Source of the DNA: a virus | Lineage: Duplodnaviria; Caudoviricetes | Virus record (IMG/VR): IMGVR_UViG_3300026549_000069 | Span: 1 to 64,000 of that record | DNA length: 64,000 nt | Direction: 5' to 3' (one strand) | Part shown: positions 5,663 through 56,965 of the stretch, piece by piece | How the letters are laid out: every line of letters starts with the position of its first letter | Numbering within the stretch: the stretch's first letter is position 1 | The notes under the pieces: generated by a model | Database searches by the model: none | Told to the model about the DNA's origin: nothing | What the model saw: only the letters and a program-made list of their open reading frames with translations | Position numbers and translations under genes: made by a program

Positions 5663-6910
5663 TTAGTCAGGTTCAGTGATGTCAACCACAACGTGATACA
5701 TCGACTCGGTAAGCACGGGAGCATAACGGCCAATAACATCAGTGTGGTAAGACTTAAGCATTCCGTTAGGCGTAACCTTGTTAATCACATAAAGGAAATT
5801 CTGAACCTTTGCCAACGAGAACTGAATGCCATTATTCACCTCACCACTTTGCATCAACTGCACATCAGCGGTCTTTGCATGAACAACAACACCAGCCATG
5901 CCAAGAGGACGAAGGACAACCTTGTTCTGCGCCCATCCGCTAACGGTCGTGATTGTGGTGATGTCCTGCACAGTGCTTTGTTGCTTGACAATGCGAATCG
6001 GGGCAACTTTCGAAATGGGGCTACGACTATAAGCCATAAGCTGCTCCATCGTGATTGTGTCAATATCAGTTGACGTACCGCCACTGGTCACAACAATTAC
6101 CTTGTCGGGAGCATAAAGGCGAATATAACGATTCACCTCATTCTTGAAAGCCGCATTCTTGAGCAGCACAGTGGTGACGATATTGTAGGGAATATCCCAC
6201 TCCATCGGGAAATCATCTGCAAGACGATTGGCCTCCTTGAAGTCAGCCTCAATCTTTGCCATCTGCTCGGGAATGTCCGCATCAGCGGCAGACCAAGCCT
6301 TCACACCAGCAGACTTGAAGTTTGCTGTAGGGATGTAAGAATCCTGAATTGTATTCACACCACTAAAGCCCTTGCTGTTCGCATTGGTGTATCCACCACC
6401 AGAAGAAAGCACTTGTGCGGCCATGTACGAAAGGCGATAGTTGTGCGTCTTAATCAGGTCAGCAACACCACGAACAAAGCCAGTGACGAGGTTTTGGTCG
6501 CTTGCGTTCAGCTCGCGCAGACGTGCCTCAAGTTCCATCTTCGACATCGAAGTCTCAAACAAGCCCTTTCCGTATTGGTAGATTGAGCCATTCTTTTCCG
6601 TCCATCCCTCGTTGTCAAGTTGAGCAGTTTCCGAAAGCGGTGCCATAGCATCAGCCATAGGAACGGTGCGGTTCACCTTTTGGCGAACAGTCCAAGCGGG
6701 ATTCTTCTTCAGGTCGCCAAGGTCAATGTCATACTCATTGCCCTCAACCGTGAAATGCTCTTGCCAAAAGAAAGAATTGCTGTCAATCTCAATCGTGTTG
6801 TCAATCAACGTCTGCAAGAAATTTGCACTAGTACCCTCGGCAAAGCCGCGTTGATACAGCTTTTCGATAGCCTCATCAGGTGTCCATTGATATTTATATG
6901 CGTTTGCCAT
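5663..6910 (-). CDS. Major capsid protein
   Basis: 415 aa; follows the scaffold and decoration-like genes; codon usage suggests high expression. Confidence 0.8.
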   Translation of the reverse strand: MANAYKYQWTPDEAIEKLYQRGFAEGTSANFLQTLIDNTIEIDSNSFFWQEHFTVEGNEYDIDLGDLKKNPAWTVRQKVNRTVPMADAMAPLSETAQLDNEGWTEKNGSIYQYGKGLFETSMSKMELEARLRELNASDQNLVTGFVRGVADLIKTHNYRLSYMAAQVLSSGGGYTNANSKGFSGVNTIQDSYIPTANFKSAGVKAWSAADADIPEQMAKIEADFKEANRLADDFPMEWDIPYNIVTTVLLKNAAFKNEVNRYIRLYAPDKVIVVTSGGTSTDIDTITMEQLMAYSRSPISKVAPIRIVKQQSTVQDITTITTVSGWAQNKVVLRPLGMAGVVVHAKTADVQLMQSGEVNNGIQFSLAKVQNFLYVINKVTPNGMLKSYHTDVIGRYAPVLTESMYHVVVDITEPD

Positions 6911-6933
6911 ATTTCTTTACTTTAAAGTGATTA

Positions 6934-7611
6934 TTAAATCCAAAAGATACCGTCAATATACGAACGATTCTTTTTCAACACATACTCGGGCAGCGGTTGC
7001 ATACGGGCAATCCATGCTTGCTTATTGTACACAGTGCTAATCGAATAATTGGCATTTGTGATTCCATAACCATCGGTAGGCATCAGGTCACGGTCTGCCT
7101 CAATAAACGTGTTCGGATTGGGAACAAGAACAAATGCTTTAGCTTGTGCGGCAGTTCCAGCGGCTTCAACCAAAATAACATCAGTAGACCCTTCATTCAA
7201 ACCGAGACTAGTATCAAGTGTAATCTTAAACGTATCGCCATTAGCTGTGCTAACAAACTCAACATTCAAAACCTTTGCGGACTGACCAGACGTTCCAGCA
7301 TCCGTAGGCGCAACCATAAGCAGCATGCCAACTTCAGGGGCATCTCCATATCCGTCGGCCTTAACATGCACAACCTTATCGCCGTCACTGTTAACGACAG
7401 CAAAAGAGCGGAAAATCAGGCAACCACTGCCGGGCGTGTATTGTACAAGCTGGGCAGCATACAGGTGGTCAAAACCTTTCTTCGGGTTGAGAATCGTGCC
7501 ACCAAGCAGCACATTGCCACGCATCTCACCGTTGCTATCTTTCACCCAAACAAACTTGCCACCACGAACTTTCTTTGAACTTTCGTAGAAATAAGCCAAA
7601 TTTGTAACCAT
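6934..7611 (-). CDS. Putative capsid decoration/cement protein
   Basis: 225 aa beta-rich protein between scaffold and MCP. Confidence 0.5.
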   Translation of the reverse strand: MVTNLAYFYESSKKVRGGKFVWVKDSNGEMRGNVLLGGTILNPKKGFDHLYAAQLVQYTPGSGCLIFRSFAVVNSDGDKVVHVKADGYGDAPEVGMLLMVAPTDAGTSGQSAKVLNVEFVSTANGDTFKITLDTSLGLNEGSTDVILVEAAGTAAQAKAFVLVPNPNTFIEADRDLMPTDGYGITNANYSISTVYNKQAWIARMQPLPEYVLKKNRSYIDGIFWI

Positions 7612-33993: not shown

Positions 33994-36261
33994 CTATTCC
34001 TCCTCATATTTTTTAAGTTTTTCTTTTAGTTCATGAATACGCTTATTCAATGTAGCGATGCGTGGCAATCTCTTTGTCTTTTCTTTTAGCATTTCATTTT
34101 CTTTTTTCAGCCGCTCACATATATTGAACAATTTGCGGTTTTCATCCAATAAACGTGAATAATCCTCAACTTTTCGTTTAACCTCAACATATTCGATTTT
34201 AGATAATAGGTCGGGTTCATCAACTTTTATTAAATATTCATCTCCACGCAGATAATCAACAATTTCAGCCATTTGGTCAAAGGTTATGTAATCATCTATA
34301 TGAACCCCTTCTATTGGTGTACCGTGCCAATCTGGTTTCCACATACAAATGCTTTTTAATATAACATCCTCAATATAATCCTTTTGCTCTTCTGTTTTCG
34401 CTTTTAGTTTCGCCATAGTTAGACCTCCTCTCTTTTCTCTTTAATCCATTTAAACAAGAATGCGATATCTCCATCCAAATCGCTATCTTCTGTCTTCGCT
34501 TCTAACATATACCTTTTATTTAACCTCCGTTATTTTCTTTTTATTGTTTTGAAATATACCTCAAAATTATCATCCCAATTATTTGCCTCTGCTAATACCG
34601 AACAAATAGGTGTTCCAATAGACCAACAGTAGGCGCTATGCGTTTCGTATAACGAGCATTTAGGGCAAATCTGCTTGTGCTTACCACCGCCTGAATAGTT
34701 TTTGCACTTGCATAGATGATGATTTACTCCGTCTATTCGCAAACAAACTCTTGTATTTTTCGCCATAATCAATTATCATTTGTAAATTCATTAGTAGTCT
34801 TCGTTGTCAATATCCATATATCCAAAGAATCGGAACTTGTCGCAGTTGTACTTTTGGTGAAACACAACAGTTGAGGATTGAGTAAGATACCAATACCACT
34901 TAATTCTTTTCTTTGGAACTTTAGCAAGATATATGTTAAAGCAAAAGCATTTCCTCCCAAGCCCGATAACAAACTTGTTCATCCAGTTATATGTGAATCC
35001 AAATAGCCTAGTCATATTAAAAAGTTATTTCATAATGTTTCCTGTCCTTTGTCACAATGCGGATTGACTTTGTTTTACTACCCTCTTTGTATTCGATAGC
35101 AAGCGCAATTTGAATGCCGTAACGCATTTCAATAACCGCCAACACACTTTCGTCTGTTATAACGTTTTCTGACCAACCATAGCCTTCTTTATTAAACTCG
35201 TAGCCAGCATCTACTTGTTTTAGTTTTTCCATACTCTTGTTATTTATTCGTTCAACAAATCTTTCAGTTCTTTCTTTAATTGACAAAGCCTTTGCTTTAA
35301 ACCGCTAACAATACAGTTTCTTGTTTCTTTGTCAAGAAGCAATTTCTCTGTTTCTTTTATAGTTCCGTCACTCCACATTGGTAGTTGTTCGGAAACAATA
35401 GGTTCTTTACCATAAAGACGTGTTGTCTTTACACCGCTTTCTCGTACAGTAATACATAGTGTAGCATCTTTGTCATCCTCGTTTTCTAATGGGTGTTCCA
35501 ATGCGTCAATAAAGTCACTGATGTCGCCGACAAGTCTTGCCTTGTCCTCGAAGTTTTCTTTAATTGTTCTCATAGCCTTGTTGTTTATTTAATCCCCTTG
35601 AATATCCAATCATTTGTTGTCGTTCCGTCGGAGTATATAACCTTAAACGTATCTTCTGTATCAACGTCTATTTTCTTTTGCCCATCATTGTTTATAAAGC
35701 AGCAACTAAAAGCGGGTGCGTTCTTGCCTTTTGCAAAAGCGCAAAGACGCTTTACGCTTACCTCAACACCGTTTTGTGAATAGTAATAAGTTAGAGGTAT
35801 CACGCTGTCCCATGAACCACCCTCGCTATGGCTGTTCAGCACACCGTAAGGCAAATCACAAATGACACAATCAATCGAATTATCTGGAATGTCTTGCATC
35901 AATTCAAGGCAATCGCCCAAATAGATATTATTTGTTTCCATAATCATTTCTTGCTTTTAAACAACAACGCACTTACTTTGCTGTATATGCCAACATGGCG
36001 CAATTTCTTGATATTGTCAAATGTGCCATCATCATTGCATTGACGATAAGACTTGCCAAGCAATCTGGGAATTTCGTGCCTACCAATTCTTTCATCATCA
36101 ACCATGCGACTTAACAATTCAACCTCACTTTCAGTAGCCTCGCATTCACCACACATATTGGAATCAATCGTTTCTTGAACCCATTTGCCAAGACCGAATT
36201 TGTCGGCGATACGTTTAACTTGCGCAAGGTAGGTGCGACAAAGTTCTTGTAATCTTTCCAT
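33994..36261 (-). CDS. Cluster of small hypothetical ORFs (33994..34416, 34530..34772, 34791..35015, 35017..35286, 35244..35573, 35944..36261)
   Basis: Abutting or overlapping minus-strand ORFs in the track. Confidence 0.6.
35585..35947 (-). CDS. Chimeric ORF: N-terminal fragment of an N4/N6 DNA methyltransferase fused to unrelated sequence
   Basis: IYLGDCLELMQDIPDNSIDCVICDLPYG...WDSVIPL, then no further MTase motifs. Confidence 0.6.
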   Translation of the reverse strand: MIMETNNIYLGDCLELMQDIPDNSIDCVICDLPYGVLNSHSEGGSWDSVIPLTYYYSQNGVEVSVKRLCAFAKGKNAPAFSCCFINNDGQKKIDVDTEDTFKVIYSDGTTTNDWIFKGIK

Positions 36262-36266
36262 AACAT

Positions 36267-36818
36267 TTAGAATAGAGTTAATTCTTGATTCTCGTTTTCT
36301 GTTTCAATGAACATTTTGCGGAATATGTGGTAAAGCACATCGACAACAATGCTATTGCCAGCTAATTTGTATTGTGCGCTATTGCTTATTCCTGTTGCTT
36401 GTATGGTGTCAATGTCTTTGTCATCAACACCCATAAGGCGAAAACATTCGCGCGGAGTTAGTCTTCTAATCTTAAATTTTTTACCTTCCAATTCTTTTGG
36501 TAATTTTCCTTTCATATCAACATTGTTATATGGTTTTTCGTATATTCCAATCACATAAGGTTCTCTATCACTATAATAGTTGCAACACAGTGTCGGTGCA
36601 ATATCTAAAATACGCTTGTTGGGATTCTTGTATGGCCCCGTATTCGCAATTATTGCTTTGTATACTGTTTGACATTCTATTATTGTCGGGACAAGGTTCC
36701 CGCCAGCACTATAATCAGTAATACATGGGGAAATGCCTTGTTTGTCATAGACTACGCCTTTACTGGGTCGCATTCTGTTTGGCTTTATGTAATATCCCAA
36801 AATTTTAATCTTTCCCAT
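36267..36818 (-). CDS. C5-cytosine methyltransferase C-terminal part (TRD modules + motifs IX/X)
   Basis: IRRLTPRECFRLMGV and QYKLAGNSIVVDVL. Confidence 0.85.
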   Translation of the reverse strand: MGKIKILGYYIKPNRMRPSKGVVYDKQGISPCITDYSAGGNLVPTIIECQTVYKAIIANTGPYKNPNKRILDIAPTLCCNYYSDREPYVIGIYEKPYNNVDMKGKLPKELEGKKFKIRRLTPRECFRLMGVDDKDIDTIQATGISNSAQYKLAGNSIVVDVLYHIFRKMFIETENENQELTLF

Positions 36819-37565
36819 ATTGGATTATATTTATTTTCCCATCGGCTATTATTGTAGGAGCTATGTTTTTTGGGTCGTATATCGATTCCCCATTTGCACC
36901 TCGCTTATCCTTTGCTTGCGCCTGAAAAGCACGAATATCACCGTTAGGCATCATCTTATACTCAATCGTTCGTTTTGATTCGAAAATCGGTTCTACAATC
37001 ACAACAAAATTTGGAATAGACCTGATTGTTGGGAATGTATTGTTGCTATGCGTTTCAAGTGTAAATTCATAGTTGTAGGTACTTCCACATCGAATTGACG
37101 CAGAAAACAACTTTGTGACATCCACATTGTTAGCGATTTTCAATCTTGGTTTCTTCATATACTTCAATGATTAGAAAATCTTTTAATTGAATTGGCAATA
37201 TCGTTCCAGATTTCCCTACTTAATCCGTATGTTTCTTATCTTCATATATTTCTAAAATTCCCATTTCACGAAATCCTTGACGTGGATGTGTAATATTTCC
37301 TGCGTAATGGTGCGCACCGGTTATCGTACATGCTATCCCATTCGGCGCATTAAGCGCATATCTACCATCGCCCAACGGGTAAAATTTAGCAATTGGTGTT
37401 TGGCTGGTGATTGTCCTCTTTTTCATATTCATATATTTCTATGATTTTCCATCCGTTCCGCGATGCGAGATTGCCGAATTGTGGGGTTATTGTGCCAATT
37501 ATTTGTTGATTTTGTGGGAAACGACTGTTAAAATCATCATAAATCAACACTGCTTTGCTCGTCAT
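36805..37565 (-). CDS. Chain of short target-recognition-domain-like ORFs (37565-37386, 37432-37220, degenerate 37245-37130, 37158-36805)
   Basis: Lie between the MTase N- and C-terminal halves; contain GTIT/CTIT/PTII motifs and end in IExYE-like motifs. Confidence 0.6.
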
Positions 37566-38289
37566 TTCTTGTTGAGAAAAACTTTTCAACTCTAGATTCG
37601 CTTAAATAAAACTTTTTATCAACATTAGAATCAAGATAATCCCTTAAACGCTTTTTTAGTTCAAAGCGTTTCGGAAAATAATATCTTGGCGGATTGCTTT
37701 CATCATCAATACGAATAGACACAAGGAATATACGATTGCGATTTTGTGCAACACCATAATCTACAGCATTTAACAATTGCGGAAAATTCATATATCCCAA
37801 TCTTGCCAATTCGCTTTGCCAAAGGTTGAACATATCAATGAATTTCGATTGAACCATTGCCTCCACGTTTTCCAAACAAAGGTATTTCGGCTTTTTTGCA
37901 ATCACGGCATTGCGAACATACCAAATGATACTTGAACGTGTACCACTGCCCTCTGCGAAACCATGCTGTAAACCTGCCGCTGAAATCGACTGACATGGTG
38001 TGCTGTAAAACAACAAGTCGCAATCTGGAAAATTATCCCAATCAATCTTTGTTATATCGCCATAATTCTTATCAGCCCAATGCGGGAACAATGCTTTATG
38101 GGCAATCACCGCTGGCTGCTTGTCAATTGGTGATTTACTTTCTGGGTCAAACTCTGCCCAAGCGACAAGTTCGTAATCAAAATCAGGGAAATCACGTTTT
38201 AGCCTTTCCAATGCAAGACATTGGCTATCGTAGCCGCTGCATAACGTGGCTACCTTTAGTGGATTTTGCTTTGTGTATACCATAATCAA
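37537..38289 (-). CDS. C5-cytosine methyltransferase N-terminal catalytic part (motifs I-VIII)
   Basis: TLCSGYD (I), STPCQSIS (IV), LENVEAM (VI), YGVAQNRNRIF (VIII). Confidence 0.88.
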   Translation of the reverse strand: MIMVYTKQNPLKVATLCSGYDSQCLALERLKRDFPDFDYELVAWAEFDPESKSPIDKQPAVIAHKALFPHWADKNYGDITKIDWDNFPDCDLLFYSTPCQSISAAGLQHGFAEGSGTRSSIIWYVRNAVIAKKPKYLCLENVEAMVQSKFIDMFNLWQSELARLGYMNFPQLLNAVDYGVAQNRNRIFLVSIRIDDESNPPRYYFPKRFELKKRLRDYLDSNVDKKFYLSESRVEKFFSTRNDEQSSVDL

Positions 38290-39014
38290 AACAATGTTGG
38301 TGTAGTGTTAGGCTGTGTAATTCCTAATATAAAGTCACAGATAAAGTTCCTTGCATAGTCTGGAGAAATCATGCTACGTTCCTCGCTACATAATCCTGCA
38401 TGGTCAGCACTTTTAGACTCCCATACACGAAGTTCCTTTTTGGGCTTTTGAAACGAGCATCCAGATGTTGGTTCGCAATTAAAGAACCAATAACCAGTCG
38501 GCTTTGTGAAATAGTCGCCGCGCATTCTTCTATTTCTGTCAATCACTGATGGCTCTTTCAAAAAATTATTGTGTAGATAATGCAACGTGGAATATGGATT
38601 CTCAATGACAATTCGAAAATTTCGTAGCAAGCAAATCCCAACCATTTTGTATAGCAACTTGTAAAATTCATTCCTATTGTCAGACCGTTCCAGCATAGCA
38701 TCGAATTTTTGCTTTGTTGTCATTGCTTTATAATTTATATTTTCAAGTGTGAAATAGCAAGGATTCACTAACCCAGTAAAATAAATACAAGGGAAAAAAG
38801 CCATTATAAAATCATCGCTAGTCATTTTGTCAAAAATGCTTTCTTTACCATCATAGGCTTTGTTGATTTCGCCAAACAAGTCAATAACATGGTCGGTCTG
38901 CCCAAAATTATTTTGGATGTCGTAATCGAGAGCATCGTAGCCTAGCTTTTTAAATTCGTGCTTGAATGTGCCACTTTGCTCAAACAAACAATGTATTTTT
39001 CCTTTTATTTCCAT
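38286..39014 (-). CDS. Compact C5-methyltransferase-like protein
   Basis: HCLFEQSG (motif I-like), AFFPC (IV) and IENP (VI). Confidence 0.65.
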   Translation of the reverse strand: MEIKGKIHCLFEQSGTFKHEFKKLGYDALDYDIQNNFGQTDHVIDLFGEINKAYDGKESIFDKMTSDDFIMAFFPCIYFTGLVNPCYFTLENINYKAMTTKQKFDAMLERSDNRNEFYKLLYKMVGICLLRNFRIVIENPYSTLHYLHNNFLKEPSVIDRNRRMRGDYFTKPTGYWFFNCEPTSGCSFQKPKKELRVWESKSADHAGLCSEERSMISPDYARNFICDFILGITQPNTTPTLF

Positions 39015-56775: not shown

Positions 56776-56847
56776 TGGCGATTGGTGTAATGGTTTGCAC
56801 GTCAGTTTTTGGCACTGAAAGGGCAAGTTCAATTCTTGCATCGCCAA
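56776..56847 (+). tRNA. trnQ: tRNA-Gln(UUG)
   Basis: Acceptor TGGCGAT/ATCGCCA, D arm GTGT/GCAC, anticodon stem TCAGT/ACTGA with loop TT-TTG-GC, T arm GCAAG-TTCAATT-CTTGC; CCA not encoded. Confidence 0.92.
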
Positions 56848-56965
56848 CAAGTTGAAAGGTTTTCGTTAATGGTGAATGATTGCCGGGCGTGCAGTGTAAC
56901 AATTACAAACCATTAAAAATACATTGCAGCCCGACTTTTTACTAACATTTAAAAGAATTGTATAT

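Follow-up and report, generated by a model that had tools for sequence, protein, structure and literature searches.

A putative phage cytosine-5 methyltransferase with separately encoded target-recognition modules

On the minus strand of the window, i.e. the first 64 kb (positions 1 to 64,000) of the 76.4-kb IMG/VR phage record IMGVR_UViG_3300026549_000069, which is rated 96% complete and stems from a gut or rumen phage, a DNA cytosine-5 methyltransferase (C5-methyltransferase) is encoded in pieces at positions 36267 to 38289. Unlike in the usual monomeric C5-methyltransferase, the motifs are not all present on one polypeptide, and five open reading frames (ORFs) follow each other in successive frames. 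The first, the N-terminal catalytic gene (37537 to 38283), encodes 248 amino acids (aa) with motifs I-VIII and is devoid of a target-recognition domain (TRD). Its ORF (38289-37537) matches the Pfam family PF00145 with an E value of 1.4e-41 over positions 2-216 of the 324 in the profile; the TPCQSIS, ENV and QNRNR motifs can be discerned, and the catalytic PCQ and the ENV are thus present. An alternative TTG start is found at 38289, but the ATG at 38283 is more likely to be the start, because it is located 2 nucleotides (nt) past the TGA stop codon of an upstream 242-aa gene and yields a protein of 248 aa, the length of the closest homologues. The last ORF, the C-terminal gene F (36267 to 36818), encodes 183 aa with two in-frame TRDs, a linker and motifs IX-X, the latter matching PF00145 over profile positions 256-322 (E 1.4e-11). 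Residues 105-173 of its product align to the C-terminal regions of M.MpeI (4dkj), M.HaeIII and M.HhaI, and the matches in a PDB sequence search with gene F were limited to motifs IX-X. Between the two catalytic halves lie six intact TRD units and one relic.

Three mini-genes, none of which has a match in Pfam or PHROGs, separate the N-terminal gene from gene F. Mini-gene B (37386 to 37565, 59 aa) encodes a single TRD of the 'YDDYN...IGTxT...RNGWKIIE' type, and its ATG lies in the +1 frame, 29 nt ahead of the end of the stop codon of the upstream gene. Mini-gene C (37220 to 37432, 70 aa), also with a single TRD, starts in the +1 frame with a 47-nt overlap. It is followed by what is left of a third module. 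A junction ATG opens a nine-codon ORF closed by a TAG (37216 to 37245), which begins with MKI, like the start of the 'MKILSCAMRGRS...' family in the related locus L005, and directly behind the TAA of mini-gene C, in the frame of that gene, a C-terminal remnant at 37130 to 37219 comprises 29 codons (37219-37133) that end in IIEVYE and resemble the end of the '...TSVLKDCLVLEIYE' family. A sequence-only reading of this DNA had already described the third module as broken; the break can now be specified as an internal deletion, which left the ATG and the last 29 codons and removed the middle, so that the junction at 37245 is a true junction with a deleted module behind it. Mini-gene E (36805 to 37158, 117 aa) contains two TRDs fused in frame and starts in the +1 frame with respect to the relic, with a 29-nt overlap, and gene F starts in the +1 frame with a 14-nt overlap. 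Terminator-like sites were detected neither within the locus nor between the upstream 242-aa gene and 36267. In all, the locus is probably best explained as one operon for a multi-part and multi-specific C5-methyltransferase.

The junctions are remarkably uniform, as the sequence-only reading had pointed out. Its five junction ATGs (37565, 37432, 37245, 37158 and 36818) and all its other coordinates hold, each of these ATGs is indeed shifted by +1 against the reading frame before it, and each lies 14-47 nt upstream of the end of the stop codon of that frame. The shared peptide that it reported is found as IEIYE, LEIYE, IEVYE and IQYG ahead of four junctions, and in the similar IGIYE the tyrosine is encoded by TAC and the frame reads on into motif IX, again as described. 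In addition, the 12-mer GAARTATATGAA occurs in three copies in the locus, at three of the junctions (37439-37428, 37252-37241 and 37165-37154, minus strand), and in one copy elsewhere in the 64 kb, with 0.03 expected by chance. The phases of the ATGs and the repetition of the 12-mer together indicate that the observation is correct and no chance pattern.

From their homology and their position, the modules are identified as TRDs. Their homologues are variable-region units in relatives that are either continuous or fused to the C-terminal part. In the continuous relatives P0163, P0198 and P0228, four or five such units are found in frame between motifs VIII and IX, with unit boundaries that read h-h-E-P, and in two-part relatives a C-type unit (L094) or a B-type unit (L011 and L082) stands directly before motif IX. 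A profile search with the B type over 1.84 billion representative proteins resulted in 329 clusters. Among the top 150 of these, 65 are stand-alone ORFs of at most 80 aa (63 of which start with a methionine), 25 measure 81-130 aa, 48 are fused to motifs IX-X and at least 4 are inside whole enzymes. Two whole enzymes, P0351 and P0364, have the B-type unit inserted directly behind motif VIII and before the usual 'FP.P..L' segment, and in these proteins the module apparently functions from another point of attachment. The AlphaFold2 (AF2) model of B, made with 62 sequences (pLDDT 79), contains only two strands, residues 3-10 and 40-46; as these are the sole strands and are terminal, they must pair in the model, which would bring the termini together like those of an insertable cassette. 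The AF2 model of the gene F protein (pLDDT 50) was too poor for use.

The same layout is observed consistently in other phages. Homologues of the N-terminal protein number 2370 within the range of lengths searched; the best 120 are all 239-358 aa long and 68-98% identical, and the contigs that encode such homologues show the same order of N-terminal gene, row of small ORFs and C-terminal gene. A scan of viral contigs with a single protein recovered no loci, but alignment-based scans did, and added about 100 further loci from viral contigs, gut and rumen-type metagenomes and five metagenome-assembled genomes, three of which were binned as Bacteroidales. The layout is kept in thousands of uncultured phages. 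It has apparently not been described to date, as no description of free-standing TRD genes was found in the literature searched. Among cultured phage records, a DNA search returned one weak match alone and a protein search none above 51% identity, so that no cultured representative of the clade was recovered.

This conservation bears on the question whether the locus could be the decaying pseudogene of a once continuous multispecific methyltransferase, or a product of assembly indels. One module of the window is a deletion relic after all, some modules in related arrays are interrupted at runs of G or C, and there are continuous relatives with several TRDs (P0163, P0198 and P0228). However, of the 43 loci that have a motif IV and, further downstream, a motif IX, three are continuous and 40 are split, and the split points recur at 57-98% identity. 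Proteins identical to C, E, F and the N-terminal one are also on record from JGI, Logan and ENA data, i.e. the same ORFs were obtained in independent assemblies. The 90%-identity cluster of mini-gene C has 16 members, and 14 of the 15 listed measure 51-70 aa (JGI, ENA, Logan and NCBI assemblies); that of mini-gene E has six members of 117-119 aa. In comparisons with relatives of 84-94% identity, the N-terminal gene has a dN/dS of 0.06-0.11, and the values for the other genes (C 0.05, E 0.10-0.14, F 0.17-0.20 and B 0.20) point to purifying selection on the modules similar to that on the N-terminal gene (in more distant module pairs dS is saturated, with dN at 0.1-0.5). The start codons are conserved as well, and no G or C run of five or more is found in the locus of the window, which contains four A6 runs. 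These comparative data already contradict decay and assembly error, which I regard as very improbable, and they bear out the earlier impression that the regularity is unlike random decay.

The G or C runs mentioned above are found in L009 (about 6130-7200), L022 (5770-6165, with a run of ten G inside a broken module) and L032 (6456-7261), where the breaks could reflect phase variation or sequencing error. The locus of the window does not show the repeat tracts that are typical of phase-variable methyltransferases.

If the ORFs are intact, the question is how they are read. The sequence-only reading had left two alternatives, separately translated and exchangeable TRD subunits, or a +1 recoding. 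Under the second, programmed +1 frameshifting or quadruplet decoding would join the modules, up to one large multispecific enzyme, and the +1 phase of all five junction ATGs in the window is what one would expect to see. In order to compare the phases, junctions were traced between the homology-supported ORFs of split loci and near-duplicate loci were removed; although +1 overlaps predominate among the 168 non-redundant junctions that remained, with 115 (68%), another 44 are in the -1 phase and nine are in phase with a stop codon and a short gap, all of them counts of junctions that share ancestry and are not independent events. For about one third of the homologous junctions, those of the -1 and in-phase classes, a +1 shift would not join the two frames. 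When all 209 junctions are counted, 32 of the 54 with a -1 phase are classic 4-nt ATGA overlaps. A relative as close as L002, which is 94% identical and lacks the relic, has a stop codon, a 15-nt gap and then an ATG where the window has a +1 junction.

The sequences around the junctions do not favour recoding either. No conserved shift-prone site was found at the junctions, which in this respect do not resemble a programmed +1 frameshift of the prfB type. The codons before the five stops in the window (TTA, TGC, GAT, CGC and GAT) differ and allow no +1 re-pairing, and no quadruplet, suppressor or unusual transfer RNA (tRNA) was detected in the 76-kb genome, the sole tRNA of which is an ordinary tRNA-Gln (TTG; window 56776-56848, plus strand). 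In 67 of 110 junctions the new frame is closed by a stop codon at most five codons upstream of the ATG. Moreover, if the ribosome shifted close to the stop of the preceding frame, the following module would lose its conserved N-terminal strand, and at least four successive shifts would result in a negligible yield. I therefore consider frameshifting hardly credible.

Separate starts, in contrast, agree with the codon usage at the junctions. Within the junction motif hhE-h-Y-[EDG], the tyrosine is encoded by TAT in 39 cases and by TAC in two, compared to a background of 58% TAT in those ORFs, and 36 of the 39 TAT junctions lead into a +1 ORF that has 35 or more codons. The in-frame junction that corresponds by homology to the IGIYE of the window accounts for one of the two TAC cases. 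As the TAT bias keeps the ATG, selection acts on the ATG and not on the tyrosine. A Shine-Dalgarno sequence was found in one of 46 genes of the phage; the leaders are AT-rich and have a T at position -1 in 74%, as is the case at the junction ATGs, a pattern that fits a host of the Bacteroidota type. Of the two earlier alternatives it is the exchangeable subunits that agree with all the comparative evidence, namely the conserved ATGs, the ATGA and gap junctions of the relatives, the purifying selection and the occurrence of TRD types in free, fused and relocated form.

This last point follows from a comparison of the arrays. The 204 free module ORFs in 40 loci amount to about 26 families, the three largest of which are present in 30-35 of the 40 loci and almost never fused. 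Other types change their context. The B type is free in the window, is fused behind another TRD in L032 and is joined to the C-terminal core in L011 and L082, while the TRD pair of mini-gene E, an in-frame fusion in the window, is split by an ATGA overlap in L032. Judged from such cases, the linkage of TRDs looks nearly neutral. Modules are also gained as a whole, as L006 equals L005 with one additional module, inserted between duplicated junctions. At the far end of the range, both the N-terminal and the C-terminal genes of L022 and L015 are without a TRD, and therefore their only TRDs are free. The TRD-less C-terminal genes begin exactly at a methionine shortly before motif IX, and a methionine 9-28 residues before this motif is also found in 30 of 34 non-redundant loci, including 22 of the 25 loci with an upstream-fused TRD. 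In the window, this residue is Met102 of gene F (ATG at 36515, 36513 to 36515), 15 residues ahead of motif IX, which is a possible candidate for an internal start of a TRD-less C-terminal core, its use being suggested by this comparison.

Alternatively, the free modules may be a reservoir of cassettes. In that case only the covalently joined TRDs would be used, and the free ones would be archival, to be swapped in by recombination at the junction repeats as in silent pilin or hsdS copies. The repeated junction 12-mer would serve this purpose, close phages do vary by entire modules (L006 exceeds L005 by one, and the relic is missing from L002), and the same TRD types occur free as well as fused to motifs IX-X. 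However, silent cassettes need no start codons, and yet the ATG-forming TAT is kept at 39 to 2 and ATGA overlaps are common. Furthermore, the largest families are almost never seen in the fused position in which they would have to be used, and some loci do not have any fused TRD. Finally, recombination from junction to junction would keep the +1 offset, and for a cassette to be expressed, the exchange would have to involve the last junction, which is in frame. I consider a reservoir unlikely, though it is the strongest of the competing explanations.

The explanation that I favour, and that I hold to be probably correct, is a two-part core like that of M.AquI together with separately translated TRD mini-proteins, which would presumably act in trans. 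The N-terminal protein with its catalytic and S-adenosylmethionine (AdoMet)-binding motifs I-VIII and the product of gene F would form the heterodimer, and mini-genes B, C and E, with one, one and two TRDs, respectively, would each be translated from their own ATG. These ATGs are embedded in an AT-rich context and have no Shine-Dalgarno sequence, and as they overlap with the end of the preceding gene, translational coupling is suggested. The E-I/V-Y-E peptide is nothing but the upstream-frame reading of the start of the next gene, GAA rTA T ATG AAG AAr (M-K-K in the new frame). This agrees with the TRDs of continuous relatives, which end at h-h-E, to which the split forms add I/V-Y-E-E. The modules have probably spread together with the junction sequence, which would explain the uniform +1 phase by descent, and the junction also behaves as a recombination repeat for the gain and loss of modules. 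The free TRD proteins would dock non-covalently on the two-part core, as every tethered TRD must do in turn, and a C-terminal protein devoid of TRDs, with its start at Met102, may be part of this core. With each free TRD the enzyme would gain one methylation specificity, which would widen the protection from host restriction. With slightly less confidence than in this explanation as a whole, though still leaning in favour, I propose that the free TRD proteins of 45-70 aa are interchangeable specificity subunits, a plug-in library reminiscent of HsdS that is gained and lost per mini-gene by means of a portable junction, which is both start site and recombination repeat. One enzyme core would thus probably protect the phage from many restriction enzymes.

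Several known systems resemble parts of this arrangement, and the likenesses to the SPR and phi3T enzymes and to M.AquI that the sequence-only reading had drawn are apt. M.SPRI, M.Phi3TI, M.Rho11sI and M.H2I of Bacillus phages are multispecific C5-methyltransferases that consist of single polypeptides. They share with the present locus that the enzyme is phage-encoded, that motifs VIII and IX enclose a series of several short TRDs, and that the presumable purpose is anti-restriction. In contrast to these single chains, the TRDs are here spread over separate ORFs, of which the locus has five in all, three without a catalytic motif. In M.AquI, a natural two-subunit C5-methyltransferase, one subunit contains motifs I-VIII and the other the variable region and motifs IX-X (PMC3404938). 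The N-terminal gene without TRD and gene F with two TRDs and motifs IX-X represent the same division. However, the two genes of M.AquI are the whole enzyme, whereas here they are 720 bp apart with TRD-only genes in between, and the C-terminal subunit of relatives can be devoid of a TRD. In M.EcoHK31I, the TRD and motif IX are on different polypeptides, encoded in overlapping reading frames (PMC3404938; PMC2836561), which shows that a covalent link between the TRD and motif IX is dispensable. The small subunit of that enzyme carries motif IX alone and is nested in the large gene, whereas in the phage the pieces are successive and it is the TRDs themselves that are detached. In a further known case, a TRD functions irrespective of its position in the chain, which parallels the B-type TRD behind motif VIII in P0351 and P0364, although a single polypeptide is still involved there. 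The logic is the same as that of Type I HsdS, a distinct protein that confers DNA specificity on the methyltransferase core into which it plugs (PMC3874165). The two have neither fold nor chemistry in common, though, as HsdS systems are N6-adenine systems, and HsdS is one large subunit with two TRDs as opposed to an array of proteins of 45-70 aa.

A number of observations weigh against TRDs that work in trans. Gene F of the window already has two TRDs in cis, so that free TRDs are not strictly needed. The shared ancestry of the junctions lessens the weight of their counts. Many related arrays hold broken modules, and some turnover or decay is therefore under way. The AF2 model of module B has no Foldseek match at E <=0.001 and no VIA match at Z >=2 (PDB, with a small model), and no solved C5-methyltransferase is known to have a TRD on its own polypeptide.

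The TRDs that gene F has of its own also leave room for a different role of the free peptides, which could be regulators or competitors, e.g. by blocking the TRD docking site, or partners of the neighbouring phrog_757 methyltransferase. The peptides are conserved and apparently translated, and a methyltransferase-like gene is indeed located directly upstream. However, the TRD families of the free modules are also those that occupy the normal TRD position in fused relatives, the upstream gene is not conserved beside the array in L004 or L005, and loci without a TRD in cis would be left without specificity. I regard this role as improbable, less so than decay or frameshifting.

If the free modules do work in trans, they would represent a novel way in which the subunits of a textbook enzyme family are organised, with the TRD as an autonomous and detachable recognition unit. 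It would also explain a quick change of the anti-restriction repertoire in gut and rumen phages, and it would provide small natural parts for programmable cytosine methylation. Thousands of phage records contain a 'truncated' methyltransferase with unnamed mini-ORFs behind it, and such genes should be regarded as one system.

Among the homologues of the enzyme, two further arrangements were observed. P0131 and P0140 are natural circular permutations, in which motifs IX-X are in frame before motifs I-VIII and the TRDs are at the C-terminal end. The homologues P0121-P0240 include many members of 590-750 aa that have an intein (Hint, intein-splicing and LAGLIDADG) in the catalytic half.

The genes that flank the locus are partly of the same kind. 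The upstream gene (38286 to 39014, minus strand) encodes 242 aa that match PHROG phrog_757, 'DNA methyltransferase', with an E value of 5.8e-23 and have no Pfam match; given this match, at least three methyltransferase-type genes are found in a row. On the other side, a 120-aa ORF at 35585-35947 (minus strand) starts like an N6/N4 DNA methyltransferase, including a DLPYG motif. Its first approximately 60 residues alone match enzymes of 254-259 aa at the same position in L004 and L002, the rest being unrelated, and the ORF is a truncated or replaced gene; a second weak match, to the C-terminal part, lies outside the window at genome position 68430-68618. In L002, a 451-aa DUF723 ORF (6191-7546) is located between the C-terminal gene and the intact N6 methyltransferase; as this ORF has no counterpart in the window, the neighbourhood has been rearranged.

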